From: a virus
Lineage: Duplodnaviria; Heunggongvirae; Uroviricota; Caudoviricetes
Direction: 5' to 3' (one strand)
DNA: 32,640 nucleotides
IMG/VR virus record: IMGVR_UViG_2541047942_000003
Coordinates: 1-32,640 of that record
Shown here piece by piece: positions 2,214 through 32,058 of this stretch. The notes below the pieces were generated by a model that was not told the DNA's origin, searched no databases, and saw nothing but the letters and a program-made list of their open reading frames with translations. A program made the translations under genes and the position numbers. The number at the start of each line of letters is the position of its first letter. Position 1 is the first letter of the stretch.

Positions 2214-2227
2214 TTTTCGTCACCTCC

Positions 2228-4847: not shown

Positions 4848-5095
4848 CCGACCACCTTACCGGCCAGCGCCACAAGGTCAGGCAGTTCCAGCGCGGCGAC
4901 CTCCTGCTCGGTCAGCATCGGTGCCGTCATGCGCGGCAGCACTTTAATCAGTGCATCGACTTCGGAGTTTGCGACCGCAGCCAGACTGACACCGCGCAGC
5001 GTCCCGGCATTAGGTTTCATCAGCGTGACCTGTTCGATAACCTGTTCACCACGTTTAACCGGATTATCCAGGGTAATGACGTTTTCTTTGTTCAT
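4820..5095 (-). CDS. E: Tail assembly chaperone gpE
   Basis: 91-aa translation MNKENVITLDNPVKRGEQVIEQVTLMKPNAGTLRG... matches P2 gpE; ends ...GFLSPNSVQ with a TGA at 4820-4822. Confidence 0.88.
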   Translation of the reverse strand: MNKENVITLDNPVKRGEQVIEQVTLMKPNAGTLRGVSLAAVANSEVDALIKVLPRMTAPMLTEQEVAALELPDLVALAGKVVGFLSPNSVQ

Positions 5096-5151
5096 GGTTT
5101 TCTCACTTCTGAATCGGGGTTAACCGGTCAGCCAGGCTGACCGGATGAAAA

Positions 5152-5670: not shown

Positions 5671-5682
5671 CGGTCAGGCTCC

Positions 5683-6873: not shown

Positions 6874-6970
6874 CCGTTTAACTCCGTGGTTAATGGGTGA
6901 GTGGTATTTTCAGTTGTGCAGGGCATGAGATGCTATTTGACCTGGCTGGTCAGGGGATGAAACAACAGAT

Positions 6971-6995
6971 AAAAAAGGCGGGCAATCAGCCCGCC
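6971..6995 (-). terminator. Rho-independent terminator at the end of the V-W-J-I-H-G operon
   Basis: Stem GGCGGGC / GCCCGCC with a 5-nt loop, followed on the minus strand by a T6 tract (A6 on plus at 6971-6976). Confidence 0.55.
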
Positions 6996-7203
6996 TGTAT
7001 TTATTGCGGTATTTCCGACCATTCAGGATTTGCAGGATCCACACGACCAGAAAGACAGCTACTGATTAATCAGGCCAATAAATACATGAACAGTAAGCAA
7101 TAGCCCGGCAGGTCTGAGGTACTGGCGCAATATAATTTGTGGCTGGATTACCTGTACGCACCGGAGCGGTCCGATACTTCCGGTGCGTCAGATATTGAAT
7201 GGC

Positions 7204-7614
7204 CTACGCCTCCTGCAGTTCAGGCCAGATGACATCCGGTGCGGTGCTGGTATCTGTTGCCGTCACAGCGTCGATATAATCCAGCACAACGTTAAGTCGG
7301 GTAGTTTCTTCTTGCGTCAGTTTGCGCCCGGCCTGCAGCTTTAACTGAATCACGCTGATATTGACCATTGCTGCGTCTATCAACGACTGTTTTTTCTGTT
7401 CAGCGTCAGCTACCAGTTCATCATGAGAACGTTCCGGAGGGAGCGGCGCAGTAAATACCCCGTCTGAATACGCCCAGCCGATTCCGGGCTGCTCACTGAT
7501 ATCAGAAATATTAATGAGCTGCTGATCATCCGGCACTGTGAATTCATCCTCGCCATCCCAGACAATGACATTCACAACCATCCCATTTTCAATAACTGCA
7601 TATGACGCATTCAT
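7204..7614 (-). CDS. G: Tail fiber assembly protein gpG, 136 aa
   Basis: Translation MNASYAVIENGMVVNVIVWDG... is a typical tail fiber assembly chaperone. The start ATG at 7612-7614 overlaps the H stop TAA at 7614-7616; the track ORF start at 7638 is an upstream extension. Confidence 0.8.
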   Translation of the reverse strand: MNASYAVIENGMVVNVIVWDGEDEFTVPDDQQLINISDISEQPGIGWAYSDGVFTAPLPPERSHDELVADAEQKKQSLIDAAMVNISVIQLKLQAGRKLTQEETTRLNVVLDYIDAVTATDTSTAPDVIWPELQEA

Positions 7615-9293
7615 TATGCAAACTCCTCGATAATACAAATCCCTGCAGCGCCTTTCCCGCCCGTCATACTGGTTCCGCTATAACCGGCATCGTATGCACC
7701 ACCGCCACCTGAACCATATGCCTTGCCGCTAACACCACCGCCAGCGCCTGCGCGTCCACCGCCCCCCCAGTACGATGTTCCGCCTTCACCGCTGACGCCG
7801 ATATTTCCGGACTGACCGTCGCCTCCACATCCACCAATGATGTTGATATCGCCAGTACTCGGCACACCTCCGTTACCACCGTTTGTGTTTGTGACTCCTG
7901 ACTTTCCGCCGCCTGCGCCACCAGGAGCAATTAACGATGCGAATACGCTATTCCCGCCCCTGGTGCCGTTCGTCGCACTAACACCACCGGCCCCACCTGC
8001 GCCGATAGTGACTGGATAACTATTCTGTGTCGGGGTCATTATTGAAATTATTGTTCCACCGGCCCCACCGCCAGCACCGAAAAACGTTTCATTATTGGAT
8101 ATAGCCTTGCAGCCGCCCCCTCCGCCACCGCCGCCCGTTATTGTGACCCTGATCCGTTTTGTTCCTGGTGTCGGGGTGTACGTACCTGATGACGTGAAAA
8201 CCCGGGTATTCACCAAGCGTCCCACGTATCCGCTTGTATCTCCCAAACCAAGATAATGAATAACCTCCTGTTTGCTTGTTTTAGCCAGAATATCCCGTCC
8301 AACATTAGTCAGGGTTGTCAGGCTGGCTGTATCATTCCCCGTAAAATACGGTAGTTTGTCTGCCGCAGTGGCAAGGCCTGCCAGTGCGGTCAGTGTGGCG
8401 TCGGCAGGTTGTTTTCCATTGGCAAGGTCATATACAGCCTTCACGGCTTTTGGTGTGGCAGCCTGCGTTTCTGACGTGCTGTTAGTGGCACTGCTGAGCT
8501 GGACAAGGCCTTTTCCCGCTGTGGTCGCGTCCTGTGCGGTATATTTCCCGTTAGCAAGGTCATATGCTGTCTTTACCGCCTTTGGCGTTGCCGCAAGCGT
8601 TTCAGAATCGCTGTTGGTGGCACTACTGAGCTGGACAAGACCTTTTCGCGCTGTGGTCGCGTCCTGTGCAGTATATTTCCCGTTAGCAAGGTCATACGCG
8701 ATCTTTACCGCTCTCGGCGTTGCGGCCAGTGTTTCAGACGTGCTGTTGGTTGCGCTGCTTAACTGAGTAAAACCTTTTGCGGTCAGCGATGCATCCGGGT
8801 GTCGTCGTGACTGTTCGTGTTCTGAGATTTTGTCATCCACATATTTACGGGTCGCCAGTACCACCGACGGATCGATTTTCAGCGTGATGGCTTCGGTATT
8901 CGAGACAACCAGAATCATGCGGATAGTCTGGGTACGACCACTGCCTTCCTGCAACTGCGGTTTGTACGTTTCCGGGCAGTTCGCCACCGCAATGAGTACG
9001 CCTTCATCATCATAAAGCCCAATCTCACGGATCCAGAATCCTCCCTCGTTTTCAGGGATAATTTGCTCCACAATAATCTGGCTCTGATTGTTAGGGTCAA
9101 CACTCAGAAGATTCAGCGGTGCAATGCGTTTCTGGTTAATCAGTTTTGTCTGTACCGGGTCTGGTGTCGGCAAGACACCATTCGCATCACCAACGGCCAT
9201 TTGCGTCAGATTCAGCTTACTGCCGAGCATCGTCGCGTTAGCCAGTCGTGCTGCGCCCTGATTAGTCAGAATGGCGTAGTATTTCACTGTCAT
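7614..9293 (-). CDS. H: Tail fiber protein gpH with internal tandem repeats and a glycine-rich C-terminal domain
   Basis: N-terminal part is P2 gpH-like; three tandem copies of a roughly 44-aa unit (QLSSATNS.SETLAATP.AVK.AYDLANGKYTAQDATTA); C-terminal 200 aa rich in GG/GGxGG. Confidence 0.85.
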   Translation of the reverse strand: MTVKYYAILTNQGAARLANATMLGSKLNLTQMAVGDANGVLPTPDPVQTKLINQKRIAPLNLLSVDPNNQSQIIVEQIIPENEGGFWIREIGLYDDEGVLIAVANCPETYKPQLQEGSGRTQTIRMILVVSNTEAITLKIDPSVVLATRKYVDDKISEHEQSRRHPDASLTAKGFTQLSSATNSTSETLAATPRAVKIAYDLANGKYTAQDATTARKGLVQLSSATNSDSETLAATPKAVKTAYDLANGKYTAQDATTAGKGLVQLSSATNSTSETQAATPKAVKAVYDLANGKQPADATLTALAGLATAADKLPYFTGNDTASLTTLTNVGRDILAKTSKQEVIHYLGLGDTSGYVGRLVNTRVFTSSGTYTPTPGTKRIRVTITGGGGGGGGCKAISNNETFFGAGGGAGGTIISIMTPTQNSYPVTIGAGGAGGVSATNGTRGGNSVFASLIAPGGAGGGKSGVTNTNGGNGGVPSTGDINIIGGCGGDGQSGNIGVSGEGGTSYWGGGGRAGAGGGVSGKAYGSGGGGAYDAGYSGTSMTGGKGAAGICIIEEFA

Positions 9294-18054: not shown

Positions 18055-18227
18055 TGTCAGGAGTCCTGAATAGTGATTAGAGGAGTCACATGTCGGCATC
18101 AGTTTCCCGACGATGCGCATCCTCCGCCATCAGTCCCGGATGGCTTATCACTGACACAACAGCACCTTAGCGAATCGCGGGGCGCGACTCAGTAGCCTTG
18201 CCGTGTATTCATCACGGCGAGGTATTC
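18055..18227. promoter_or_regulatory. Divergent late promoter region between O and P; contains a 6-bp inverted repeat (GCCGTG...CACGGC) in the P leader
   Basis: Intergenic position between divergently transcribed O and P, as in P2. I could not locate a canonical Ogr TGT-N12-ACA dyad by eye. Confidence 0.35.
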
Positions 18228-20000
18228 ATGACCATCACCACAGACACCACTCTTTTACACGACCCGCGTCGTCAGGCGGCGCTGCTGTACTGGCAGGGGT
18301 TTTCCGTGCCGCAGATTGCCGCCATGTTGCAGATGAAACGCCCGACGGTGCAGAGCTGGAAACAGCGCGACGGCTGGGACAGCGTTGCCCCCATCAGCCG
18401 TGTCGAAATGAGTCTGGAAGCGCGACTGACCCAGCTCATCATCAAACCGCAGAAAACCGGCGGTGACTTCAAGGAAATTGACCTGCTGGGACGCCAGATT
18501 GAACGACTGGCACGGGTCAACCGCTACAATCAGACCGGCAACGAGGCAGACCTTAATCCGAACATCGCTAACCGCAACAAAGGCGGGCGGCGCAAACCGA
18601 AAAAGAATTTTTTCAGCGACGAGGCTATCGAAAAGCTGGAGCAGATTTTCTTTGAGCAGTCTTTCGACTATCAGTTGCACTGGTATCGCGCCGGGCTTGA
18701 GCACCGCATCCGCGATATCCTGAAATCCCGCCAGATTGGCGCGACGTTTTATTTTTCCCGCGAGGCGCTGCTGCGCGCCCTGAAAACCGGCCATAACCAG
18801 ATTTTTCTGTCGGCCAGTAAAACGCAGGCGTATGTGTTCCGCGAATACATCATCGCCTTTGCCCGGCTGGTTGACGTTGACCTGACCGGTGACCCGATTG
18901 TCCTGGGCAATAACGGCGCAAAACTGATTTTTCTCGGCACCAACTCCAACACCGCACAGAGCCATAACGGCGACCTGTACGTCGACGAGATTTTCTGGAT
19001 CCCGAATTTTCAGGTACTGCGTAAGGTGGCATCAGGTATGGCCTCACAGAGTCACCTGCGCTCGACCTATTTCTCCACCCCGTCCACGCTGGCGCACGAC
19101 GCCTACCCGTTCTGGTCGGGTGAACTGTTCAACCGGGGACGCGCCAGCGCCGCCGAACGCGTGGAAATCGACGTCAGTCATAACGCCCTTGCCGGTGGGC
19201 TTCTCTGTGCGGACGGCCAGTGGCGGCAGATTGTCACCATTGAGGACGCCCTGAAAGGTGGCTGCACGCTGTTCGACATTGAGCAGCTCAAACGCGAAAA
19301 CAGCGCCGACGATTTTAAAAACCTGTTCATGTGTGAATTTGTTGACGACAAGGCGTCGGTGTTCCCGTTCGAGGAGCTGCAACGCTGCATGGTCGACACG
19401 CTGGAAGAATGGGAAGACTATGCGCCGTTTGCCGCGAATCCGTTCGGCTCCCGCCCGGTATGGATTGGTTACGACCCGTCACACCGTGGCGACAGTGCCG
19501 GATGCGTGGTGCTGGCACCGCCGGTGGTGGCCGGTGGCAAATTCAGAATACTTGAGCGTCACCAGTGGAAAGGCATGGACTTTGCCACTCAGGCGGAATC
19601 CATCCGCAAACTCACCGAAAAATACAACGTCGAATACATCGGTATTGATGCCACCGGCCTCGGTGTCGGCGTGTTCCAGCTCGTGCGCTCGTTCTATCCC
19701 GCCGCGCGCGATATCCGCTACACACCGGAAATGAAAACCGCAATGGTGCTCAAGGCAAAAGACGTTATCCGCCGTGGCTGTCTGGAATATGACGTCAGCG
19801 CCACCGACATCACCAGCTCGTTTATGGCTATCCGCAAGACCATGACCAGCAGCGGACGCAGCGCCACCTATGAGGCCAGCCGCAGCGAGGAAGCCAGCCA
19901 CGCCGACCTCGCCTGGGCGACCATGCACGCCCTGTTAAATGAGCCACTCACCGCCGGTATCAGCACCCCGCTGACATCCACCATTCTGGAGTTTTACTGA
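18228..20000 (+). CDS. P: Terminase ATPase (large) subunit gpP, 590 aa
   Basis: Translation from MTITTDTTLLHDPRRQAALLYWQGFSVPQIAAM... matches P2 gpP; start at the ATG at 18228. Confidence 0.9.
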   Translation: MTITTDTTLLHDPRRQAALLYWQGFSVPQIAAMLQMKRPTVQSWKQRDGWDSVAPISRVEMSLEARLTQLIIKPQKTGGDFKEIDLLGRQIERLARVNRYNQTGNEADLNPNIANRNKGGRRKPKKNFFSDEAIEKLEQIFFEQSFDYQLHWYRAGLEHRIRDILKSRQIGATFYFSREALLRALKTGHNQIFLSASKTQAYVFREYIIAFARLVDVDLTGDPIVLGNNGAKLIFLGTNSNTAQSHNGDLYVDEIFWIPNFQVLRKVASGMASQSHLRSTYFSTPSTLAHDAYPFWSGELFNRGRASAAERVEIDVSHNALAGGLLCADGQWRQIVTIEDALKGGCTLFDIEQLKRENSADDFKNLFMCEFVDDKASVFPFEELQRCMVDTLEEWEDYAPFAANPFGSRPVWIGYDPSHRGDSAGCVVLAPPVVAGGKFRILERHQWKGMDFATQAESIRKLTEKYNVEYIGIDATGLGVGVFQLVRSFYPAARDIRYTPEMKTAMVLKAKDVIRRGCLEYDVSATDITSSFMAIRKTMTSSGRSATYEASRSEEASHADLAWATMHALLNEPLTAGISTPLTSTILEFY

Positions 20001-21019
20001 TGAGCAAGAAAAAAGGGAAAACACCGCAACCTGCGGCAAAAAAAATGACCGCCAGCGCCCCGAAAATGGAGGCATTCACCTTTGGTGAGCCGGTGCCGGT
20101 ACTCGACCGCCGTGACATTCTGGATTACGTCGAGTGCATCAGTAACGGCAGATGGTATGAGCCGCCGGTCAGCTTTACCGGTCTGGCGAAAAGCCTGCGT
20201 GCTGCCGTGCATCACAGCTCGCCGATTTACGTCAAACGCAATATTCTGGCCTCGACATTTATCCCGCATCCGTGGCTTTCCCAGCAGGATTTCAGCCGCT
20301 TTGTGCTGGATTTTCTGGTGTTCGGTAATGCGTTTCTGGAAAAGCGTTACAGCACCACCGGTAAGGTCATCAGACTGGAAACCTCACCGGCAAAATATAC
20401 CCGCCGTGGCGTGGAGGAGGATGTTTACTGGTGGGTGCCGTCCTTCAACGAGCCGACAGCCTTCACGCCCGGCTCCGTGTTTCACCTGCTGGAGCCTGAT
20501 ATTAATCAGGAGCTGTACGGCCTGCCGGAATATCTCAGCGCCCTTAACTCTGCATGGCTGAATGAGTCGGCCACGCTGTTCCGCCGCAAGTATTACGAAA
20601 ACGGCGCACATGCCGGATACATCATGTACGTCACCGATGCCGTGCAGGATCGCAACGATATCGAAATGCTTCGCGAAAACATGGTGAAGTCGAAAGGCCG
20701 CAACAACTTTAAAAATCTATTTCTCTATGCCCCACAGGGGAAAGCCGACGGCATTAAAATTATCCCGCTCAGTGAAGTGGCAACGAAGGACGATTTTTTT
20801 AATATCAAAAAAGTCAGCGCCGCAGATCTGCTGGACGCACACCGCATCCCCTTTCAGTTGATGGGCGGCAAGCCGGAGAACGTCGGGTCACTGGGGGATA
20901 TTGAGAAAGTGGCAAAAGTATTTGTCCGTAATGAACTCATTCCATTACAGGAGAGAATAAAGTCAATAAATGAATGGTTAGATATGGAAGTCATAAAATT
21001 CCATGATTATAACTTATAA
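20000..21019 (+). CDS. Q: Portal protein gpQ; the last 25 or so codons are encoded by AT-rich DNA
   Basis: 339-aa translation matches P2 gpQ; DNA composition changes sharply near 20940. Confidence 0.9.
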   Translation: MSKKKGKTPQPAAKKMTASAPKMEAFTFGEPVPVLDRRDILDYVECISNGRWYEPPVSFTGLAKSLRAAVHHSSPIYVKRNILASTFIPHPWLSQQDFSRFVLDFLVFGNAFLEKRYSTTGKVIRLETSPAKYTRRGVEEDVYWWVPSFNEPTAFTPGSVFHLLEPDINQELYGLPEYLSALNSAWLNESATLFRRKYYENGAHAGYIMYVTDAVQDRNDIEMLRENMVKSKGRNNFKNLFLYAPQGKADGIKIIPLSEVATKDDFFNIKKVSAADLLDAHRIPFQLMGGKPENVGSLGDIEKVAKVFVRNELIPLQERIKSINEWLDMEVIKFHDYNL

Positions 21020-21031
21020 GTAAATATATAA

Positions 21032-21057
21032 AGTGGGCGGAATGCAATCCCGCCTAC
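21032..21057. terminator. Stem-loop between the convergent Q and two-TM genes (putative bidirectional terminator)
   Basis: AGTGGGCGG ... CCGCCTACT, a roughly 9-bp stem with one G-U pair and a loop containing AATGCAA. Confidence 0.4.
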
Positions 21058-21061
21058 TTAA

Positions 21062-21769
21062 CTATATATACTTCCTTTTTATTCTACTTAATTCTATCAC
21101 CGATGAGGAATGACAAAATGACAAATTAATAGTATCGATATAATCCAAAATTTGACTCTCAACCTCGATAAAAATATTCTTGGGTCCATTACTAATCGAT
21201 ATACCGATTTCATCCAAAACAGCCATCATTTTTCTCTGATGAGTTTTATATTTATAGTCTTTATTTTCCTCTGTAATATGTGCATTAGCTTCCTCAATAA
21301 CACATTTGATTCTAGATATTATTTCTAGATAATCTCTCGAAACAGATATATCACCGCCCTGTGCTTCAGGAAACATAACCCTATACCATCTAAAAAAATT
21401 AACTTTCTCTGGATAGATGCTACTTCTTTTAGTTAACTCAGCACTTGCAAATTCTCTAAACATCGTCAGATGACTAGTATAATTACTATTGTTATTATTT
21501 TTAACTCCAGCGTTATATGTCATCAAAGCAATCATAACACCAAAAACGGTAACAAAAGTTGTTATAAGCCATCCAAATGCCTGAAAATACATCACTATAC
21601 CAGATGTTTTTTCCGCAAAAAATTTCAAGCACTGGCTATCAAAGCATATATCTCGTTCATATAGCCTTTCATTCTGAATAGTTTCCAAAAGAGAAATTAG
21701 CGAAAAAATCAAAAAAAGAACTGACGACACACCGACAATACATTTAAGAAGTCTAATATTTGCATTCAT
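21062..21769 (-). CDS. Two-TM membrane protein, 235 aa; candidate effector of the reverse transcriptase module
   Basis: Two predicted N-terminal hydrophobic helices (LLKCIVGVSSVLFLIFSLISLL and IVMYFQAFGWLITTFVTVFGVMIALM) and a soluble C-terminal domain; the start ATG overlaps the RT stop (ATGA); AT-rich. Confidence 0.6.
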   Translation of the reverse strand: MNANIRLLKCIVGVSSVLFLIFSLISLLETIQNERLYERDICFDSQCLKFFAEKTSGIVMYFQAFGWLITTFVTVFGVMIALMTYNAGVKNNNNSNYTSHLTMFREFASAELTKRSSIYPEKVNFFRWYRVMFPEAQGGDISVSRDYLEIISRIKCVIEEANAHITEENKDYKYKTHQRKMMAVLDEIGISISNGPKNIFIEVESQILDYIDTINLSFCHSSSVIELSRIKRKYI

Positions 21770-22956
21770 AATGGTTTTAAAGATGCCAATCTAGATTTAA
21801 AACACTCCAGTTTTTCTTTAAATGATTCAGATCGAGTAAGGATAATCATCTTATATCTCGTCAAATCATACTTTCTTTTATACCAATGTTTATTTTGATT
21901 ACCTTTCGAATACGACAACTCTAAACTTTTTATAGCTGCATCAATCACAGCAACATCTCTTTTAGATGGCATCGGTTTTATTGCCTGTAACTGTTTCTTG
22001 AATGATTCATATTTTTCATGCCCAACACGACCAAGCTTATTAACTCTCCCCATACATCTATTGAATTCTTTTCTGTATGCAACACTTGTTTTTGTATTAT
22101 TTTTTGCCGCCAGCAATTTCAAATTATGTATAGATGCCCTGATTCTTTTGACTTCATCAGATGGTAGTCGAGGTGAGTCATAGTCAACTCTTAAACCATG
22201 TACTTTTATAGGTTCAGATGAACAGTGAAATATTTTAGTTTTGTGCTTATTTATCGGCAAGTCATGCTCAGAAAGCATCCTCTCTATATGGCTTTGCATT
22301 TGAGAAAAATCATAATTACTTATTTTAGATGACACAGTAATATCATCTACCAAACGCGTATAAATAAGTCCTTTTCTCTGCGCACGCCTTACCACATCCC
22401 CTTCAACAGCGAATAAACACAAAGTTGCTATATAGCTTGATGTTAAGGCCCCCTGTACGACAAAATCATTCTTAGTACATATATCCACCAAGTATTCAAG
22501 AGCCTCATCCTTAATATGCAATATATCCTCAAACACGCTCCTAACCAGATCTCTATGAATATTATCGAAAAAATTACTTATATCCACCTTGAGAACTGTT
22601 TTTGCTCCACAATGAGCCTTTGCGCATGAAACATAGTCACGTTTGACGTTAGAATTTAAAACATCATTTTTACTAGGGACTGAACCAAACAAAAATGAAG
22701 GAAAAACCACCAATTCCTTAAAGATACGTTTATTAATTCTACTCTGTAATAATCTCATTTTAGGATGCAGGGAGTAGACAATCCGTTTGCTTCCGTCAAT
22801 TTTGGGAATTTCTTTTAGAGTATATTTCTCATCTAATGGTAGTTCTGCAATAGCTTTAAGCTCTTCAACAGAAATCGATAAAGCCTTTGACAGCTTTTCA
22901 AGTGTTGTGATAGGAGCATTGGATTTGCTGTATGGTTTAAATTTATCCATAAACAT
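21766..22956 (-). CDS. Retron-type reverse transcriptase, about 396 aa
   Basis: Motif order typical of retron RTs: LSKALSISVEEL, VLKVDISNFFDNI, QGALTSSYIATL, GLIYTRLVDDITVS (YADD position reads LVDD), KTKIF...VHG. The track start at 23040 is a TTG and is probably false; I place the start at the ATG ending at 22956 (MFMDKF), which is uncertain by a few tens of nt. Confidence 0.75.
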   Translation of the reverse strand: MFMDKFKPYSKSNAPITTLEKLSKALSISVEELKAIAELPLDEKYTLKEIPKIDGSKRIVYSLHPKMRLLQSRINKRIFKELVVFPSFLFGSVPSKNDVLNSNVKRDYVSCAKAHCGAKTVLKVDISNFFDNIHRDLVRSVFEDILHIKDEALEYLVDICTKNDFVVQGALTSSYIATLCLFAVEGDVVRRAQRKGLIYTRLVDDITVSSKISNYDFSQMQSHIERMLSEHDLPINKHKTKIFHCSSEPIKVHGLRVDYDSPRLPSDEVKRIRASIHNLKLLAAKNNTKTSVAYRKEFNRCMGRVNKLGRVGHEKYESFKKQLQAIKPMPSKRDVAVIDAAIKSLELSYSKGNQNKHWYKRKYDLTRYKMIILTRSESFKEKLECFKSRLASLKPL

Positions 22957-22973
22957 ACCATTCAAATTCAAAG

Positions 22974-23280
22974 TTACGTACGGTCTTCCCATACTCAAGG
23001 GTGGAACAGCAGAGATGCTTACATCAACAATTGTCAGCAACAGCCTCTGCTATCTTTCGACCGTACGTAATGTCGTCGGCTACAGCACCATCGTAGTTGA
23101 CGACGGTGGGGCCTCGCTGATAGGTCCATAGTGGACGCTTTTTTGTAAAAGCAAAAACTGACAATTTAGTATTGTTGACTGCCGCATACCAAGCGAATCG
23201 CTGGTGCGCTAAGAATAATGCAACAAAAAAATAAGAATTTCAATCGAGTAACTGCAAGCCAGCGACATCGTTTGGCGCGC
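22974..23280 (-). ncRNA. Structured noncoding region between cos and the RT start; candidate retron msr-msd or other RT-associated ncRNA; boundaries unresolved
   Basis: Perfect 12-bp inverted repeat TTACGTACGGTC / GACCGTACGTAA (23059-23070 and 22974-22985) enclosing a nested AGCAGAG / CTCTGCT repeat; a further hairpin at 23072-23104 and a palindrome GCTTTTTTGTAAAAGC at 23137-23152. Confidence 0.3.
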
Positions 23281-23281
23281 A

Positions 23282-23300
23282 GTGCTTTCCCCGCCTCGCC
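23282..23300 (-). other. cos: P2-type cos (19-nt cohesive-end sequence GGCGAGGCGGGGAAAGCAC on the minus strand)
   Basis: Reverse complement of 23282-23300 reads GGCGAGGCGGGGAAAGCAC followed by TGCGCGC, matching my recollection of the left end of the P2 genome. Confidence 0.65.
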
Positions 23301-23395
23301 CGCCCGCTTCATGGGGCGGTTTTGATGCAACCTCGTATTAAAGGGGACACCATAGCCCATCAAACCTCAGACTTCGCCCCTAGCTAACGTTTATG

Positions 23396-23422
23396 AATGC
23401 AATGTAATGCAACTTAATGCAA
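23396..23422 (+). promoter_or_regulatory. Three AATGCAA heptamers spaced exactly 10 bp apart, upstream of the helicase-nuclease gene; putative protein-binding sites
   Basis: AATGCAA at 23396, 23406 and 23416; followed by an AT-rich -10-like GATAAT (23434-23439) and an AAGAGG ribosome-binding site 7 nt before the ATG at 23484. Confidence 0.4.
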
Positions 23423-23483
23423 GTTATGGTAATGATAATTCTGCGTTAACAATTAAACTAATGTACCTGTAAGAGGATAAAAA

Positions 23484-25967
23484 ATGTCTGGTTTTTTCCT
23501 TGATTTAACCAAGCTTTCGCCCAGTGTAAATAGCGACACAGCGATTCCACCGCGAGATATATTTACAGCTCTACCGAGCAAAGACACCAAATTTCAATAC
23601 CCTCGAGATGTGCAATCAGAGGTCTGGGAAAAATGGTATGAAGCAAGGAGAAGCCCAACCAATGTAATAAAAATGAATACCGGAAGCGGTAAAACTTCAG
23701 TTGGGTTAATCATTCTTAAAAGCTGTATAAATGAAGGAGAAGGTCCCGCTGTATATGTTGTTCCTGACAACTATCTAGTTGAGCAAGTGGTTTTGGAGGC
23801 TAATCAACTTGGTATACCTGTAACTCAAGATGAGAGGTCCCCCAAATTTATTGCAGGTAAAGAAATTTTAGTTACAAATATATTCAAAGTGGTTAATGGA
23901 CGTTCTGCATTTGGCGTTGGAGATGATGGACAAAAAATACCAATAGGTTCTATAATAATTGACGATGCTCACGCTTGCCTTTCTTCAATTGAAGAACAAT
24001 TCTCCATTAGCATTCAAAAAAATAACCCTGCCTATGATAAATTATTCAGAATTTTTGAAAATTCACTAATGACACAAGCTGGTGCAAAAACACTAGAGAT
24101 AAAATCCGGCGATAGAAATGCTTATGTGAGAGTTCCATTTTGGAAATGGCAAGAAAGCATAAATGATATAATGACAATCTTGTTAGAAAATAAAGACCAT
24201 GATGACTTGAGTTTCAAATGGCCATTAATAAAAGACAATCTAATATTATCGAAATGCGTTGTAAGTGCTTCCAAAATAGAGATATCACCTCATTGCATAC
24301 CAATCCAAATGATCCCAAGCCTATCAAACGCAAGAAGAAAAATATTCATGACAGCTACTCTTGTCGATGAATCCATTCTAGCGAGCCACTTCGGAATAAC
24401 GGATGAATCACTCTCTAATCCGATAACACCAAAAACAATTGGTGATATTGGTGATAGAATGATACTAATGCCTCAGGTTATAAACCCTAGTCTTTCTGAT
24501 GTAGATATCAAAGCTATGTGCAAGGAGATATCCTCCAAACATAATGTTGTTGTAATTGTACCATCCGATTACAGAACTAGATTTTGGCAAGATGTTGCAG
24601 ACAGAATATTAGATAAAAATACAATTTATCAAGGTGTACAAGAATTAAGGACACAACATGTTGGCTTAGTAGTCCTAGTTAATAGATATGATGGTATTGA
24701 TTTACCAAATACCGCATGTCGTCTATTAGTAATAGATGGACTTCCTGACGTTCGTAGACTAATAGATAAAGTCTCACAAAGCTTATTGCTTGGAAGCGAA
24801 AAAACCAAAGATGAAATTATCCAGAAAATTGAACAAGGAATGGGGCGAGGAGTGAGATCAAGCGACGACTTCTGCGGAGTGATCTTACTTGGCAAAGCAT
24901 TAAATGGCGCTGTTTTCCTTGGCTCCTCCTTAGAAAGGTTTTCTCCAGCAACGAAAGCACAAATTCAACTTTCACAGCAATTGGTATCGATACTGCCGGA
25001 TACAACTATTGATTCAATCAAAGGTGCTCTTGATTATTGTCTGTTACGCAATTCTGACTGGGTCTCAAAAAGCAAAGGTATATTGACTGGCTTAACATTG
25101 GAAAATAAGCAGATTGACCAGCATACTATAAACAAAAGATTGGCATATGACTTAGCATCACGAAATATGTTTCAACAAGCCGCTTTAACTCTAAAAAATG
25201 ATAGTAGTACAGCTGACAAAGTTTATAAGGGTTATCTAAAAGAACATGCTGCGGAATATGTAAACTTATATGACAAATCTGAAGCTCAGATATTGCTTCA
25301 GTCTGCATCAAACGATAACTATCGGGTATTAAAACCACTAATCGGCGTAACATATAATAGACTTAATGGTGCGGCACTTGAACAGGCCAGGGAATGTAGC
25401 TCCTATCTCAGAAGTAATTTTGAATCGGCGAATCAAGTCGTTGTGCATACTAATTCAATAATAGAAAACCTTATTTTCTCCGAGGGCACATCGAATCCCT
25501 TCGAAGATGCTATCGAAAAAGTTGCATATTTGGTCGGTTTTCGTAGCCAACGGCCAGAAAATGATACAGGTAAAGGACCTGACAATTTATGGGCAATGGG
25601 AGAAAACAATTATCTAGTAATTGAATGCAAAAATGGAGCAACCGCAGAAAGAATAAGTAAGCATGACTGCAATCAGTTAAATGGGTCGGGTGCATGGTTC
25701 AGAAACATGTATGATCAAACTGCTACCGCCACACCTATAATGATACATCACTCTAACATGCCTGAATATGCCGCAACACTAAACGAAGGGTCTCGAATAA
25801 TGACCATAAATGATCTTGAACGTTTTAAAGCATCTATCCTCAGTTTTATCACGGCCATTTGTACAAGTGATAAACGACACGATGAGATATTTATAAGAGA
25901 ACAATTGATCACATGTAAATTACGTGCATCAGACATAGTTGAGACCTATACGCGAAACCCTCGTTAA
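23484..25967 (+). CDS. Helicase-nuclease fusion, 827 aa: Rad3/DinG-like SF2 helicase with a C-terminal PD-(D/E)xK-like motif; candidate single-gene defence protein
   Basis: Walker A NTGSGKT (aa 65-71), motif II IIIDDAHA (aa 157-164), motif III FMTATL, motif VI QGMGRGVRSSDDFCGVILLG, and C-terminal E...GPD(aa 700)...VIECK(aa 714-716); strong RBS; AT-rich; occupies the P2 old/tin position. Confidence 0.7.
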   Translation: MSGFFLDLTKLSPSVNSDTAIPPRDIFTALPSKDTKFQYPRDVQSEVWEKWYEARRSPTNVIKMNTGSGKTSVGLIILKSCINEGEGPAVYVVPDNYLVEQVVLEANQLGIPVTQDERSPKFIAGKEILVTNIFKVVNGRSAFGVGDDGQKIPIGSIIIDDAHACLSSIEEQFSISIQKNNPAYDKLFRIFENSLMTQAGAKTLEIKSGDRNAYVRVPFWKWQESINDIMTILLENKDHDDLSFKWPLIKDNLILSKCVVSASKIEISPHCIPIQMIPSLSNARRKIFMTATLVDESILASHFGITDESLSNPITPKTIGDIGDRMILMPQVINPSLSDVDIKAMCKEISSKHNVVVIVPSDYRTRFWQDVADRILDKNTIYQGVQELRTQHVGLVVLVNRYDGIDLPNTACRLLVIDGLPDVRRLIDKVSQSLLLGSEKTKDEIIQKIEQGMGRGVRSSDDFCGVILLGKALNGAVFLGSSLERFSPATKAQIQLSQQLVSILPDTTIDSIKGALDYCLLRNSDWVSKSKGILTGLTLENKQIDQHTINKRLAYDLASRNMFQQAALTLKNDSSTADKVYKGYLKEHAAEYVNLYDKSEAQILLQSASNDNYRVLKPLIGVTYNRLNGAALEQARECSSYLRSNFESANQVVVHTNSIIENLIFSEGTSNPFEDAIEKVAYLVGFRSQRPENDTGKGPDNLWAMGENNYLVIECKNGATAERISKHDCNQLNGSGAWFRNMYDQTATATPIMIHHSNMPEYAATLNEGSRIMTINDLERFKASILSFITAICTSDKRHDEIFIREQLITCKLRASDIVETYTRNPR

Positions 25968-25976
25968 ACAGTAAAA

Positions 25977-25999
25977 GACCACCTCCTAAGGAGGTGGTC
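25977..25999. terminator. Perfect 10-bp stem-loop GACCACCTCC-TAA-GGAGGTGGTC, 10 nt after the helicase stop codon
   Basis: Read directly from the DNA; flanked by AAAA upstream and a T-rich stretch downstream, so it could terminate either convergent transcript. Confidence 0.5.
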
Positions 26000-26206
26000 C
26001 TTGTATAATAAAAAGAACCAGTTTTTATTGTTAATAATACAATTCTCGAATTTCAACATAGACTTATTGTACCACCAGTAAAATCATCAATATTAATATA
26101 TAGAAAAAAAGAAATGTCGATTATTTGTACGTAGCGTAATCATATTAACATATACAGATAAACAGCAACCTTACCATTATGCAACCAATCTAAAACATTA
26201 TGTTTA

Positions 26207-28486
26207 TTACTCTGAATAACCAGAAAACCCACTCCACTCATCTACACTAGGATATGAAAATTGCTTTTCATTGTAATTGACGATCGCACCGCGTACTAAC
26301 GCCTCAAGCTCCCATCGCTGCGGCCTGATACCGTTTTGAGCAAGGTCAACGCGGATACGGGTGATTTGCATTCGTTCCGACCTGGTCAGTCTGGCCGATG
26401 GTGCAATTTCATGTGGTTTTAACGGGCTTCCGTTTCTTTGCTGACGACTTGGCGTTCTCCGACCGTGTTTTAATGCACCCCTGAGCGCCCTCACGACCTC
26501 CGGGTCATTCCATTCGATAACACCGTCATCAACCAGATTTAGCACTGCTGCGGCGTGCTCAGAAGGTGTGGGAGCCGGTAACGAAGTATCACCACCGGTG
26601 AGCTTTCCACAGTTATTGACAGGACTCCGAGGCGCGGCGATGCCGCTTTTTAAAGTCAAAGGCTCAAAGACCGGCACTTTCGGAACAATGCGCCAGTCCG
26701 TCGTTCTGGTGATATGAATATGACGCGCGCCGAGATGCGGCGCGTAAATGCCGACCACTCTCTCGACTTCTTCCTCATACTCGTTAACGTCATCCGACGG
26801 GCTACGGGCGACCCTGACAGTCTGACAATCGCGCGGGACATTTGCCCCACCCTGCGCGCTGATATACAACGCAAAATCACCACTGTCTGCGGCGGCGCGT
26901 GCAGCCTCGACGCGCTCGTCAAACTCATCAGCAATGCTGACGCCGCGAGGCAATTTGCGTAGTTCACGGTAAGCCCCCATTGTCGGCAGACCAACCGTTT
27001 TAAATTGCGGGATGCGCCACGTTGACGCCCATGCGGTAACAGCCGCGGCAGTGTCTTTCAGCGGTCTGCCGGTATCATTATCGAGCTGACCATCCAGTGC
27101 ATATCCGTCGATATTTTTTGAGATGTATTTCGCGATATACCCCGCAGCACCGCCCCGGTTAAGGTGTTTCGCCTGAAAACGGTTTCGCGCGGCTCCTCTT
27201 TCGTCGCCATCCTCTTTGAGCGCGTAGCGACGCATGATTTCAATAATCTGGTTACGCTGGCGTGGATTACAAAAAAGCATCATATGCCAGTGCGGCGTTC
27301 CGTCGTGGTGTGGCTCGACGACTCGCAAACCGTAGGCCTGTAAATCATTATCCTTGAATGCCGTGCGCATCAGGCTCCAGATGCGGCAGAGATAACGCTG
27401 AGCATCCTTTGGATTAAATGCCTCATCATTCCAGCCGTGATTTAGCTGGACGGTTTTACTTTCGCCTTTTCCGACCTGACGTGTCGGGTGATACTTTGAC
27501 GGCGCGGTCAGCGTGATAAACATCCCCACATCACCCTCTGCGGCGGCGTAACGCTCAATACCGGCAATGGTGTTCATCAGCTCCATCCGGCGAATTTCAG
27601 GATTAGAAATACTGCCCATCACCTTACTGATAAGGTCGATGCGTTCGCCGGTTTCCCTGTTTTCAAGGTCACACGATTTAAGAAATTCCAGATTTGCCTG
27701 GCGGCGCGCACGCACATCACGAATGGCATGTTTACTGGCATAAGGAGAACGGTCTTTATTGACCTCCCCGACAGCAATCAGTAACGCCTCATGCCAGCGC
27801 ATACGCTGGCCTTTAAGCTGATGAGTCCACCACTCATCGTTAAACAGGCGGGCAATAGCAGAATATGCCTGCCTCGTGGTCATCTGTCCTTTACGGTATT
27901 TTTTCCAGTAGAGAGGGGAAATATTGAAAGCACGTGCAGCGCCAGCAACATGACCATAGAGGTGAGCCTGCGCCTCATCCGTAAACAGCGATTCTTTCTC
28001 GCCATGCGCATCCACCCAGGCATCGCAGAGTTCCTCATACATCATGAAAAGCTGTGATGAGATACGGGCGGCAAACTTTTTCAGCTCCTTGTCATTCATT
28101 CCCGGCAGGCGCGCATAGTGGTCACGCTCTGCCAGAAACAGCAACGACGCGTCGGTGTTCATTTCATGGCGCTGATTCACACGCTCAATGCGCGGCCATA
28201 AACGACGCTGAAAAGTGGATGTGAGGAAATAAAACCCGTGCACCGGGCTTTTATTGCGCCGGATGTAGTCATAGCGTGAAGTAAACAGCGAGCGCAAAAA
28301 GTAAGGCAGGCGGTTAATCGTGGATAAAACACCTTGCACCTGACGCATCTCGTCACGTGTAAGGGGTCTTTCGCGCCCGACAGCCTCGCGTGGCGCGTTC
28401 CATGCATAAGCACCGGTAAACGCCTTACCGGTGCCTGCAGCAAATGCTGACGGAGGGACAAAACGCCCGGAGGCTTTAACGGCCAT
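26207..28486 (-). CDS. A: Replication initiation protein gpA (rolling-circle nickase), 759 aa
   Basis: Translation from MAVKASGRFVPPSAFAAGTGKAF... matches P2 gpA; start placed at the ATG ending at 28486 rather than the track start at 28528. Confidence 0.9.
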   Translation of the reverse strand: MAVKASGRFVPPSAFAAGTGKAFTGAYAWNAPREAVGRERPLTRDEMRQVQGVLSTINRLPYFLRSLFTSRYDYIRRNKSPVHGFYFLTSTFQRRLWPRIERVNQRHEMNTDASLLFLAERDHYARLPGMNDKELKKFAARISSQLFMMYEELCDAWVDAHGEKESLFTDEAQAHLYGHVAGAARAFNISPLYWKKYRKGQMTTRQAYSAIARLFNDEWWTHQLKGQRMRWHEALLIAVGEVNKDRSPYASKHAIRDVRARRQANLEFLKSCDLENRETGERIDLISKVMGSISNPEIRRMELMNTIAGIERYAAAEGDVGMFITLTAPSKYHPTRQVGKGESKTVQLNHGWNDEAFNPKDAQRYLCRIWSLMRTAFKDNDLQAYGLRVVEPHHDGTPHWHMMLFCNPRQRNQIIEIMRRYALKEDGDERGAARNRFQAKHLNRGGAAGYIAKYISKNIDGYALDGQLDNDTGRPLKDTAAAVTAWASTWRIPQFKTVGLPTMGAYRELRKLPRGVSIADEFDERVEAARAAADSGDFALYISAQGGANVPRDCQTVRVARSPSDDVNEYEEEVERVVGIYAPHLGARHIHITRTTDWRIVPKVPVFEPLTLKSGIAAPRSPVNNCGKLTGGDTSLPAPTPSEHAAAVLNLVDDGVIEWNDPEVVRALRGALKHGRRTPSRQQRNGSPLKPHEIAPSARLTRSERMQITRIRVDLAQNGIRPQRWELEALVRGAIVNYNEKQFSYPSVDEWSGFSGYSE

Positions 28487-28751
28487 ATGAGCCAAAAGCC
28501 TCTGAACAACGCTTGCTGAGTTGCTCAACCTGCGCGTTTAAATCAGCAAAAGACTTTGCGCTTCCGGTCAGAATATCGTGATGCATCAGGCCGGAAACGA
28601 GCTGGCTTAATTTCGGGTAATAACCAACCACCGCCAGCCATTCCTGACCGGCGTTTTTACCGCTTTCCGCTCTCTTTTTCTCGTGGAGAATAAACTGGAA
28701 GCTGTCACTGGTAACGACATAACGTTCGCCAATTTCAATACGAATACTCAT
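28476..28751 (-). CDS. Small early-operon protein, 91 aa, at the P2 orf83 position
   Basis: Lies upstream of A in the cox-B-A operon; assigned by synteny only. Confidence 0.6.
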   Translation of the reverse strand: MSIRIEIGERYVVTSDSFQFILHEKKRAESGKNAGQEWLAVVGYYPKLSQLVSGLMHHDILTGSAKSFADLNAQVEQLSKRCSEAFGSYGR

Positions 28752-28972: not shown

Positions 28973-29277
28973 TACCAGTTCCTTTTGTCGTTCAGTTTCT
29001 TAAATTCATCAGCGCAATAGCTGGCGAGTTCTGTCGTTAATTTTGTCAGTTCATCCACTGAGGAAATTTGCTTGTGAAATACAGCGCGTTTCACAAGTAA
29101 ATTGATCACATCAGACAGGAGGTTTAATTCGCTCTGATAAATCGCGATAACAGATTCAGTTATGTCGCGCTTTTCTTTATCAAGACCAAGTTGAATAAGA
29201 GACAAATCGCCATTTTCCATAACGGCGATTTTTAAGGCGTTATTCAGTAATACAACTGAATGAGAACAGGACATCAA
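28972..29277 (-). CDS. Hypothetical early-operon protein, 101 aa, at the P2 orf81 position
   Basis: Synteny; start and stop overlaps with neighbouring genes. Confidence 0.6.
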
Positions 29278-29498
29278 AGCACCTCCCCACGAGACAATCC
29301 GATATTGTGAAATTTTTCCGACTCCTGACTGAGCAGCTCGACTATCTCCACGCGGGATAACTCCGCCTTTGTGATGTGGCGAATCATGGCGTCAAGATGA
29401 GAAGAAAAGCGCGTCGCAGCGTCGGCCTGTGCTTCGGTTCTGGCCTGTTGCAGCAGTAATGCGTATATACCGCACTGATTTTCAGAAACTGTATGCAT
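29274..29498 (-). CDS. Hypothetical early-operon protein, about 74 aa, at the P2 orf80 position
   Basis: Internal ATG (MHTVSENQ) preceded by GGAG; synteny. Confidence 0.55.
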
Positions 29499-29561
29499 GA
29501 CTTTCTCCAGGCAAAAAGAAGCCCCGCACAATTAAGTGCGTTAAAAACTCTGGTTAATTAC

Positions 29562-30068
29562 TTAATGCAGATATTGCTCTGGTTTTACCGACGTCAGAAT
29601 TGTCGGTGCATACTCAAACAGACTGAATAATTCACGTAATGCACGGAATAAAGCATCACGCCAGTAACATGATTCTTCATTAATTCGCCAGTATGGCTGG
29701 TTAAATTCTTTTTCTGTCAGTCGTGCGTGCATAAATAAAGTGCGACGCTGACTGACTGTTAAAAAACTAATATATGCATACTCACTTGCGCCAACCTGAC
29801 GGCGTTTTGAGAATGCCCCACGCAATTCATCAATTGCACATACCAGTCGTTCACGTTCGACGTCGTTCATTTCTTCAAAACGCATCGTTGCGTGACGCTG
29901 TTTTAACTGCGCATGGAAGCAAACCGTTAGCCGTTCACGTTCCATCATCTGATTATAATAATCGCATGTCTCCTGCCAGCGAGGGACGGCCAGATGCTTA
30001 CCAATTATCCGGCGCATAGTTGCTGGCTGTTTTTCAACGAGATTGAGCGTCATCACTGTCATTTCCAT
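29562..30068 (-). CDS. B: Replication protein gpB (helicase loader-like)
   Basis: Translation ...MTVMTLNLVEKQPATMRRIIGKHLAVPRWQ... matches P2 gpB; the exact start may be 2 codons into the track ORF. Confidence 0.88.
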   Translation of the reverse strand: MEMTVMTLNLVEKQPATMRRIIGKHLAVPRWQETCDYYNQMMERERLTVCFHAQLKQRHATMRFEEMNDVERERLVCAIDELRGAFSKRRQVGASEYAYISFLTVSQRRTLFMHARLTEKEFNQPYWRINEESCYWRDALFRALRELFSLFEYAPTILTSVKPEQYLH

Positions 30069-30253
30069 ACCCTCCGGCTTTTCAGAAAGGTCAGAGCCTT
30101 TTTTAACGGACTCTGTTTTTTGGTGCGGATAATGATTCCCTTACGCCCCTTACCGTGGGTGATGTTGAAGTCAATCGCCCTGGGGCTTTCGTTACGCAGT
30201 AACTGAGCAATACAACGAGGCTCATTCATACGGTTCTCCTTAACGTGGTTCAC
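30059..30253 (-). CDS. Small hypothetical protein at the P2 orf78 position
   Basis: Synteny between cox and B; start uncertain. Confidence 0.5.
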   Translation of the reverse strand: MNHVKENRMNEPRCIAQLLRNESPRAIDFNITHGKGRKGIIIRTKKQSPLKKALTFLKSRRVWK

Positions 30254-30515
30254 CGAGACCTAACCACATCAACCAGCCGTCACGAATCTCTTTAGGGCGG
30301 CTTTCATAAGCCAGTTTTAGTCCGTTATTCCATGCCGGAAGGTATACCCAATATTCACCTGCACGACCTGAAGCTGATTGTGGATCGGTCATATCAATTA
30401 CAGGCAGCTTTCCTTTATCGATCATCCGACGAACCGCTCCTGTCGATTTTCCTATTAGTTTTGCGAACTCCTGATAAGGAATCGCATCAGTCATGAGTGT
30501 TACTTGCTTGCTCAT
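30240..30515 (-). CDS. cox: Cox excisionase and early-promoter repressor
   Basis: 91-aa translation MSKQVTLMTDAIPYQEFAKLIGKSTGAVRRMIDKGKLPV... matches P2 Cox. Confidence 0.92.
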   Translation of the reverse strand: MSKQVTLMTDAIPYQEFAKLIGKSTGAVRRMIDKGKLPVIDMTDPQSASGRAGEYWVYLPAWNNGLKLAYESRPKEIRDGWLMWLGLGEPR

Positions 30516-30629
30516 GTCGTCCTCCAGCCCTCATGAATTGCGTTTAATGCCTTATAATGCCTTTTAGTGCCCACATCCAAGCACTAAACAATCTACATCT
30601 AAACTAAATACTATTGAGATCTAAACACC
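30516..30629. promoter_or_regulatory. Immunity switch region between cox and C: consensus TATAAT (30553-30558) flanked by direct repeats TAATGCCTT (30546-30554 and 30556-30564)
   Basis: Motifs read directly; interpreted by analogy with the P2 Pe/Pc face-to-face promoters and C operator direct repeats. Confidence 0.45.
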
Positions 30630-30929
30630 ATGTCAAACACGATAAGCGAGAAGATAGTCTTAATGCGAAAATCAGAGTATTTGAGCAGACAACAACTTGC
30701 TGATTTAACAGGGGTTCCGTATGGCACGCTGAGTTACTATGAAAGTGGTCGTTCAACACCTCCAACAGATGTCATGATGAACATCCTGCAGACCCCACAA
30801 TTCACCAAATACACTTTATGGTTCATGACCAATCAGATCGCTCCTGAGTCCGGGCAAATTGCGCCCGCTCTCGCACACTTTGGGCAAAACGAAACAACGT
30901 CGCCCCACTCCGGTCAAAAGACTGGTTAA
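30630..30929 (+). CDS. C: Immunity repressor C
   Basis: 99-aa translation with a helix-turn-helix (LSRQQLADLTGVPYGTLSYYESGR); matches P2 C. Confidence 0.9.
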   Translation: MSNTISEKIVLMRKSEYLSRQQLADLTGVPYGTLSYYESGRSTPPTDVMMNILQTPQFTKYTLWFMTNQIAPESGQIAPALAHFGQNETTSPHSGQKTG

Positions 30930-31044
30930 CAATTCATCGTGAATATATTCATCACAAGTGCCTACTATTGGTGGCTAAATTTCAGCCACCACGAAAAAAG
31001 CGATTAGTAGTCGCCAAAAAACACACCACTCGGAGGGTTTTCTG

Positions 31045-32058
31045 ATGGCAATCAAAAAACTCGATGATGGTCGATATGAAGTGGACATCCGCCCTACTGG
31101 ACGTAATGGAAAACGCATCCGTAGGAAGTTTGATAAGAAAAGCGAAGCTGTCGCTTTCGAGAAATACACGTTGTACAACCACCACAATAAAGAATGGCTA
31201 TCAAAACCAACAGACAAGCGACGTCTGTCGGAGCTGACACAGATCTGGTGGGATTTAAAGGGTAAACACGAAGAGCATGGGAAATCTAATCTTGGAAAAA
31301 TTGAAATCTTCACAAAAATAACGAATGACCCATGCGCATTTCAAATTACGAAATCGCTTATCAGCCAGTACTGCGCCACCCGAAGAAGTCAGGGTATTAA
31401 ACCTTCGAGTATCAATCGTGATTTAACATGTATTAGCGGCATGTTTACAGCCCTGATTGAAGCGGAGTTATTCTTTGGTGAGCACCCTATCAGAGGGACA
31501 AAAAGGCTTAAGGAGGAAAAACCAGACACAGGCTATCTCACGCAGGAAGAAATTGCCTTACTGCTTGCTGCTCTTGACGGCGACAATAAAAAGATTGCGA
31601 TTCTTTGCCTGAGTACTGGAGCACGTTGGGGAGAAGCAGCTCGTTTGAAAGCAGAAAATATCATCCATAACCGCGTCACGTTTGTTAAAACGAAAACAAA
31701 CAAACCACGCACCGTCCCGATCTCAGAGGCTGTTGCCAAAATGATCGCGGATAACAAACGAGGTTTTTTATTCCCTGATGCTGATTACCCTCGCTTCAGA
31801 CGAACAATGAAAGCAATAAAACCGGATTTGCCAATGGGGCAAGCCACACATGCACTAAGGCACAGCTTTGCCACTCATTTCATGATTAATGGAGGAAGTA
31901 TTATCACGCTACAACGGATACTAGGTCACACGCGGATTGAGCAAACTATGGTTTACGCTCACTTTGCGCCAGAGTACCTTCAGGACGCCATTTCTCTTAA
32001 TCCGCTAAGAGGTGGTACTGAGGCCGAGAGTGTCCACACAGTGTCCACAGTAGAGTAA
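31045..32058 (+). CDS. int: Tyrosine integrase
   Basis: 337-aa translation matches P2 Int, with HALRHSFATH and a C-terminal catalytic Tyr region (MVYAHF); adjacent to attL. Confidence 0.92.
   Translation: MAIKKLDDGRYEVDIRPTGRNGKRIRRKFDKKSEAVAFEKYTLYNHHNKEWLSKPTDKRRLSELTQIWWDLKGKHEEHGKSNLGKIEIFTKITNDPCAFQITKSLISQYCATRRSQGIKPSSINRDLTCISGMFTALIEAELFFGEHPIRGTKRLKEEKPDTGYLTQEEIALLLAALDGDNKKIAILCLSTGARWGEAARLKAENIIHNRVTFVKTKTNKPRTVPISEAVAKMIADNKRGFLFPDADYPRFRRTMKAIKPDLPMGQATHALRHSFATHFMINGGSIITLQRILGHTRIEQTMVYAHFAPEYLQDAISLNPLRGGTEAESVHTVSTVE

Follow-up and report, generated by a model that had tools for sequence, protein, structure and literature searches.

The stretch analysed here (the window, 32,640 nucleotides of IMG/VR record IMGVR_UViG_2541047942_000003) is an E. 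coli P2-like (Peduovirus) prophage adjoining yegR, and the region under study is the AT-rich interval between its replication gene A and its portal gene Q, within which the packaging site cos lies. The window corresponds almost exactly to one P2-like prophage. Tail and head genes occupy its left side, a 337-amino-acid (aa) open reading frame (ORF) at 31045-32058 on the right side takes the position of int, to which it was assigned by position, and the final 580 bases come from the yegR flank of E. coli, with 100% identity to an E. coli chromosome. Gene order was the same as in Peduovirus records, to which the Q and A flanks of the island showed 96-97% DNA identity. A predicted type IV retron and a predicted Hna helicase-nuclease lie on the two sides of a conserved 55-bp cos core, and they are two independently assorting cassettes, not one island. 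The features of the locus are as follows.

18198-20000, plus strand: terminase gene P, with the expected Pfam family
20000-21019, plus strand: portal gene Q, 339 aa (Pfam Phage_portal)
21036-21054, no strand assigned: GC-rich hairpin, a probable terminator between the convergent Q and 2TM genes (terminator-like site)
21062-21769, minus strand: predicted retron Ec48-family two-transmembrane (2TM) effector, 235 aa (PADLOC 2TM_IV, 8.7e-85; NCBIfam retron_Ec48_2TM)
21766-22956, minus strand: predicted type IV retron reverse transcriptase (RT), 396 aa, ATG at 22956 (PADLOC RT_IV, 8.3e-177; Pfam RVT_1)
22974-23178, minus strand: predicted retron non-coding RNA (ncRNA; msr-msd) and RT leader (inverted repeats; RNA fold z = -3.5; compensatory changes)
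23215-23243, minus strand: candidate sigma-70-like promoter, TTGAAA-17-CATTAT, in the interval from cos to the retron ncRNA (consensus scan only)
23275-23329, no strand assigned: conserved cos core, 55 bp, GC 0.69 (BLAST against eight loci; ends of linear phage records)
23396-23422, no strand assigned: 10-nt repeat AATGCAAnnT, 2.7 copies, upstream of the Hna gene (Tandem Repeats Finder)
23484-25967, plus strand: predicted Hna-type superfamily 2 (SF2) helicase / PD-(D/E)XK nuclease, 827 aa (PADLOC PDC-S28, 1055 bits)
25974-26002, minus strand: 13-bp hairpin with a T-run, a probable terminator of the A (early) operon (terminator-like site)
26003-26206, no strand assigned: AT-rich spacer from this terminator to the A stop (BLAST, tail alignment)
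26207-28528, minus strand: replication gene A, longest ORF 773 aa from TTG at 28528 (Pfam Phage_GPA, 1.2e-123); annotated as 723-768 aa in relatives

Two divergent modules thus flank cos, as the initial annotation had described, with the retron genes on the minus strand to the left and the helicase gene on the plus strand to the right. The sharp drop to AT-rich sequence that it had placed at about 20940-26300 was borne out by the GC profile and by a Mann-Whitney test. GC content was 0.361 over 20940-26300 and 0.538 in the remaining window. The 400-bp profile was not uniform: it ran at 0.53-0.59 until about 20800, at 0.31-0.40 from about 20900 to about 26300 and at 0.51-0.58 thereafter, with a local peak of 0.49 at 23000-23400 inside the AT-rich stretch. 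Non-overlapping 400-bp windows averaged 0.369 inside (n = 12) and 0.540 outside (n = 67; p = 4e-8), the minimum among the outside windows (0.427) lying near the top of the inside range (maximum 0.432). This drop is genuine and goes well past what chance would produce. Furthermore, the GC contents of the two arms were alike and low (0.345 and 0.369). Another lower-GC P2-like segment, the lysogeny region at 29000-32000, had a GC content of 0.44-0.45.

Breakpoints were placed by BLAST comparison of the window with eight P2-like phages, whose Q and A are 91-98% identical to those of the window. All eight matched the window to 20958-20994 in Q and resumed at 26145-26373 in A. Between these limits, seven of them matched only 23275-23329, and the eighth, phage pro147, shared the whole retron arm (20600-23329). 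The cargo of the relatives was unlike that of the window and comprised DUF4209, ParaMORC3 with Dcm, a Fic protein, a 3'-5' exoribonuclease, cytolethal distending toxin, ParB with a methyltransferase, and DUF4238. The distance from the Q stop to cos was only about 160 bp in seven of the eight. Phages this similar in Q and A therefore carry different DNA in the interval, bar the 55-bp cos core, which agrees with the earlier description of the stretch as foreign cargo rather than as ancestral backbone shared by close relatives. The cos core was the sole island sequence common to all relatives, and two linear phage records terminate exactly at window position 23282. The reverse complement of 23282-23300 (19 nt) is GGCGAGGCGGGGAAAGCAC, which we take to be the P2 cohesive end.

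Both junctions lay inside the adjacent genes, as had been suggested, with homology ending at 20958 in Q and, depending on the relative, at 26145-26373 in A. In Q, DNA homology to the P2-type gene ceased at codon 320 of 339. The GC content at third codon positions (GC3) was 0.64 in codons 1-313 and 0.31 in the last 26, which confirmed the AT-rich end of about 25 codons claimed for this gene; the fall began near codon 300, and codons ~300-339 (about 20900-21019) form an AT-rich, cassette-linked tail. The portal protein has 339 aa in the window and in pro147 and is annotated with 344 aa in six of the seven other relatives. Its last ~24 residues are LQERIKSINEWLDMEVIKFHDYNL in the first two, versus LQDRIREINGWLGQEVIRFKNYSLDTDNG in the other relatives, so that the window's tail is homologous to theirs as protein but is written in AT-rich codons. 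In A, GC3 was 0.55 in the gene body, 0.40 in the last 35 codons and 0.25 in the last ~16. The segment that differed among relatives, 26207-26299, is AT-rich, cassette-linked and about 30 codons long; hence the AT-richness earlier noted at the end of A was correct, and its length of about 20 codons was slightly short. Each relative has its own last ~30 A codons after the conserved TGGGAGCTTGAGGCG (window 26300-26314, complementary strand), except pro483, in which the A gene stops just before the variable tail; the tail of the window is the AT-rich VRGAIVNYNEKQFSYPSVDEWSGFSGYSE. Comparison of the C-termini across relatives indicated that the ends of Q and A are neither truncated nor fused, and that they were replaced by divergent homologous tails. 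Phage vB_EcoM-569R9, with DUF4209 cargo and otherwise unrelated in the interval, shared about 60 bp past the A stop and the end of the A tail (together 26145-26250; identity ~91% over 26145-26700, covering the spacer at 26145-26206), which looks like the footprint of nested, staggered recombination.

The two arms were found with different partners. Escherichia phage pro147 (NC_028896) matches the window at 97% identity in the cos core, the retron arm and the AT-rich Q tail, but differs in an A-side arm with a different RT gene and in its A tail (...PGFSTNI*). Of 5426 complete E. coli genomes, 57 contained the retron arm plus the AT-rich Q tail at full length, with identities of 97.7% or less, and all 57 had the same Q tail. 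The A-side partners of this arm in pro147, strain UPEC-245U and seven IMG/VR contigs were other arms, at least four in number and ending in different A tails, and the shared segment stopped at 23329 every time. A search with the island (query 20900-26350) returned 87 records at 99% identity or more. The 25 that were listed all had the Hna arm, and presumably so do all 87, because no retron arm exceeded 97.7%. Among the 25 listed E. coli genomes, every match spanned exactly 23275 to the query end at 26350 (99.8-99.9% identity) and continued through the same A tail. One such E. coli prophage, S51, pairs its Hna arm with a Q gene of the normal P2 type and a Q-cos spacer free of cargo; it showed three mismatches to the window in 23275-26350 (3076 bp) and about one per 25 nt beyond 26351. 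Relatives resembling the donor of the retron arm and those resembling the donor of the Hna arm overlapped only in the cos core, and both arms together were present in none of the 5426 complete E. coli genomes or 50,697 phage records. The separate partners, together with the lack of any record holding both arms, indicate that the arms reassort, with an exchange point that would lie within the 55-bp cos core. Consequently, of the single AT-rich island straddling cos that the initial annotation had proposed, the low GC and the position around cos held, and the unity of the island did not, since the arms assort independently.

The left arm (~20900-23274) is, judging from its sequence, a type IV retron of the Ec48/Eco6 family composed of an ncRNA, an RT and a 2TM effector. 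Type IV retrons are defined by their RT clade and by a gene for a two-transmembrane protein downstream of or overlapping the RT gene (PMC7736814). The RT scored 586 bits with the RT_IV profile, ahead of RT_V as runner-up (212 bits; PADLOC); its start was chosen as annotated in pro147, and the longest ORF reaches a TTG at 23040. It has LVDD in the YxDD box, VHG in place of VTG and CAKAH in place of NAxxH. The deviations reported for RT-Eco6 (Ec48) are VHG and xAxxH (PMC6868368), and among the references of the same paper is one on an E. coli RT whose YXDD box reads LVDD. The start of the 2TM gene overlaps the RT stop by 4 nt (21766-21769). Its product matched the NCBIfam equivalog 'retron Ec48 family effector membrane protein' at 226.7 bits (cutoff 65) and has two hydrophobic, predicted transmembrane segments starting near residues 3-14 and 58-68. 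The likeness to Retron-Eco6 (Ec48) thus extends over the RT with its VHG, xAxxH and LVDD motifs, the overlapping two-TM gene, the predicted upstream ncRNA and, under one model of that ncRNA, a predicted 48-nt cDNA; it was drawn through profiles, motifs and descriptions. The sources for the type and for Ec48 are Mestre 2020 (PMC7736814) and Millman 2020 as conveyed by PMC8632793.

In the leader upstream of the RT, a bipartite helix resembling a1/a2 pairs 23178-23158 (a1) with 23037-23024 (a2) and ends in G23158, and retrons of Marinobacterium and Marinobacter, as well as two IMG/VR relatives, show compensatory changes in it. A second conserved helix, proximal to the RT, pairs 23070-23059 with 22985-22974 and is kept more widely than the first. 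A hairpin, H3, is located at 23108-23086. If G23158 were the branch point and the RT stopped at the base of 23108-23086, the cDNA would be 48 nt long (23038-23085). A candidate msd hairpin at 23104-23072 lacked covariation support and was dropped, and an Rfam scan of 20800-26400 returned no retron family, only sub-threshold chance matches (E ~0.7-1). In type IV leaders, the a1/a2-like helix encloses a loop of about 118 nt and crosses the second long-range helix, which has 9-12 bp, a loop of 73-82 nt and an end 11-29 nt before the RT start at every type IV locus examined. The crossing was seen in the window (22974-23178) and at the retron loci L009 (5748-5949), L010 (5847-5948), L011 (5832-5933) and L024 (~3775-3990). 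Since two conserved helices cross, both with compensatory changes, a pseudoknot or alternative folds are indicated. As for the candidate promoter at 23215-23243, the total of promoter-like matches in the region was not above the shuffled expectation, and promoter assignments are therefore weak. In a relative of the retron arm (IMGVR_UViG_2585427795_000009, 5892-8530), the 2TM gene is separated from the Q tail by an additional ~2.6 kb with a GC content of about 0.42-0.50, which may have been inserted.

The right arm (23330-~26310) is predicted to be a single-gene Hna helicase-nuclease. Its product has the Pfam domains ResIII, DEAD and Helicase_C_2, and phmmer matched it to PDB 9YHN/9YKJ/10UJ (E = 5.8e-121) over nearly the full length, query residues 60-792 aligning with residues 62-806 of an 845-residue chain. 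The entries 9YHN and 9YKJ are cited in the study of Hna (PMC13381803) and the 845-aa chain length fits, so the chain was taken as S. meliloti Hna. In the alignment, the helicase motifs GSGKT (Walker A) and DDAH correspond to GQGKT and DDAH of the S. meliloti protein, and the nuclease motif PDNLWA...YLVIECK to PDNLWA...YLLFECK. The catalytic lysine is kept, the equivalent of K729 being the ECK lysine by chain numbering; a K729A mutant of S. meliloti Hna has been described (PMC13381803). That protein combines an SF2 helicase with a PD-(D/E)XK nuclease, digests single-stranded DNA (ssDNA) as a 3'-5' exonuclease, and forms an autoinhibited ATP-bound dimer that is activated by phage single-stranded DNA-binding protein (SSB; PMC13381803). 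The window protein thus shares full-length homology and the helicase and nuclease motifs with Hna (Sather 2023; Hooper 2026, PMC13381803), and in comparison with the Hna of S. meliloti pSymA it appears to be a divergent orthologue in an E. coli prophage; PADLOC 2.0 lists its type merely as the candidate PDC-S28. The AATGCAAnnT repeat, between cos and the Hna start codon and within the 99.9%-conserved Hna arm, could be a binding site for a regulator or host factor. The hairpin at 25974-26002 abuts the Hna stop, and sub-threshold Rfam small-RNA matches there reflect the hairpin only.

With composition, gene identities, breakpoints and independent assortment obtained here, the region is read, at a probability of roughly 0.9, as the cos-proximal gpA-gpQ ('tin/old') hotspot, in which two arms split by the 55-bp cos core are swapped between P2-like phages. 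A precedent for this hotspot, the tin/old or 'TO' locus, was reportedly set by Odegrip et al. in 2006. The cos-adjacent gpA-gpQ locus is a published defence hotspot with retrons among its cargo, for which 1,650 gene arrangements were counted in 18,150 E. coli loci and an exchange through a crossover at cos plus a homologous crossover was proposed (Rousset et al. 2022, PMC9122126); a re-analysis described rapid swapping of its defences (de Sousa et al. 2026, PMC13586616). The window resembles it in having cargo between A and Q around cos, in high turnover among near-identical phages and in genes that are defence genes by homology (type IV retron, Hna/PDC-S28). Nothing essential differs, the window having cargo on both sides of cos where P2 has only ~160 bp between Q and cos. 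As for the recombination pathway, we infer that in an arm swap between P2-like phages one crossover would fall at or within cos and a second within the 3' end of the neighbouring core gene. Because of this outer crossover, each cassette would drag along the donor's C-terminus of Q or A. The mapped breakpoints fit the two-crossover model of Rousset et al.

A single acquisition of one island from an AT-rich donor, with cos included by chance, is very improbable. The arms are alike in low GC (0.345 and 0.369) and contiguous save 55 bp, as one island would have them; nevertheless, the Hna arm is 99.9% identical to that of E. coli prophages without the retron arm, in prophages with other A-side cargo the identity of the retron arm does not exceed 97.7%, and no searched genome or phage record has both. 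The chance is just as slim for a site-specific or transpositional insertion, by integrase, transposase or retron retrotransposition, at a fixed target beside cos. Neither an integrase nor a transposase was detected in the island by PADLOC and Pfam scans, and neither cassette is flanked by direct or tandem repeats, nor are there target duplications, so there is no sign of such an insertion, even though cargo occupies the same interval in many phages and an RT is present. Moreover, the limits of A-side homology are staggered over 26145-26373 according to the relative, and both junctions lie inside homologous coding sequence. The lack of an integrase or transposase and of direct repeats, taken with the staggered A boundaries, favours homologous or illegitimate recombination over site-specific insertion. 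That the low GC reflects ancestral backbone or local mutational drift is the least credible alternative. Other lower-GC P2-like segments do exist, such as the lysogeny region at 29000-32000 (0.44-0.45), but relatives 91-98% identical in the flanks have unrelated sequence in the island, the same retron family forms AT-rich islands in GC-rich marine bacteria, the retron arm is found in only 57 of 5426 genomes, and the 87 records at 99% or above (the 25 listed all with the Hna arm) leave the retron arm at no more than 97.7%.

Some points weigh against the reading of two arms swapped around cos. A crossover exactly in the 55-bp core is deduced solely from the ends of the shared segments. Phage records yielded no donor for the AT-rich Q tail: tblastn against the 50,697 records gave, beyond pro147, no more than 64% identity over 28 aa. 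The exact msr/msd boundaries are ambiguous owing to the crossing helices, and the expression and activity of the retron and of Hna are predicted by homology.

By that homology, we infer the following defence activities and triggers. An Ec48-type retron is reported to guard RecBCD, its two-TM effector becoming active when a phage inhibitor blocks RecBCD (PMC8632793). The RT of the window, from its homology to Retron-Eco6, would make multicopy single-stranded DNA (msDNA) from the upstream ncRNA, and the RT-msDNA complex would silence the two-TM effector until a superinfecting phage inhibits RecBCD. The freed effector would then kill the cell in an abortive infection. Likewise, by homology to the S. 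meliloti protein, Hna would rest as an ATP-bound autoinhibited dimer that phage SSB turns into a 3'-5' ssDNA exonuclease; degradation from 3' ends would abort the infection. The lysogen may thus express two abortive-infection systems, which would protect it and hence the prophage. The cassettes are transcribed away from cos and converge on Q or A, with the hairpins at 21036-21054 and 25974-26002 in between.

The hotspot and both cargo families are already known, and this is no new kind of system. The window contributes a pairing of arms not reported before, Ec48-type retron plus Hna, which is absent from the 5426 E. coli genomes and 50,697 phage records, and it resolves, at base level, junctions that fall inside Q and A, where the gene ends are homologous replacements. 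The window thereby provides a clean, base-resolved case of immune-gene swapping in a prophage, with two arms, a 55-bp cos pivot and probable crossovers inside the ends of essential genes, in agreement with the model of recombination put forward, without mapping, by Rousset et al. (PMC9122126). For the Ec67 and Ec86 retrons, the account of Dodd & Egan 1996 conveyed by PMC6868368 is that about 180 bp, from cos to the terminator of the packaging gene, is replaced in 186-like prophages. Going by that account, the window is similar in having a retron between cos and the end of a packaging gene in a prophage of the P2/186 family, but its junction lies inside the portal gene, with the last 20-40 codons replaced, and its retron is of a different type, type IV with a 2TM effector.

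Outside the P2-like relatives, a scan of contigs with the RT yielded no donor; the six loci obtained came from marine gammaproteobacteria plus one Acholeplasmataceae metagenome-assembled genome, and none was beside P2 genes. The type IV retrons of Marinobacterium and Marinobacter (L009 and L013) were also AT-rich islands; in L009, GC content was 0.31-0.36 at 6000-9000 and 0.55-0.62 in the flanks. Such islands in GC-rich marine bacteria argue that low GC travels with the retron family and does not point to an E. coli-specific donor.

Another P2-like element (L024, IMGVR_UViG_2869551831_000002) has a type IV retron at 3947-5886, with an RT 76% identical to that of the window, between tail-fibre and tail-sheath genes in a Z/fun-like position. 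At 2444-2740, 1.3 kb upstream, a 98-aa ORF represents an orphan remnant of a portal C-terminus, with 50% identity to Q residues 270-339 and the LQER...NEW motif of the window's tail. This remnant, and the fact that each cargo type seen has its own Q or A tail, give rise to a tentative suggestion, which we consider somewhat unlikely, that cassettes carry with them short substitutes for the C-terminus of Q or A, which would serve as portable homology 'handles'. Such handles may let a cassette enter any P2-like genome and, occasionally, another hotspot. If so, the variable tails would be part of the mobile unit, and the true borders of the hotspot would lie inside essential genes.

A further type IV retron RT, 74% identical, was found in IMGVR_UViG_2558860204_000002 (1-5188) with a holin gene, a tip-attachment-J-like tail gene and an impB/mucB-like gene as neighbours, indicating that the family also rides in non-P2 prophages. 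In the window itself, the Z/fun locus between the tail-fibre assembly and sheath genes (6873-7204) appears empty, with about 330 bp between ORFs, which places all accessory cargo of this prophage at the cos hotspot.

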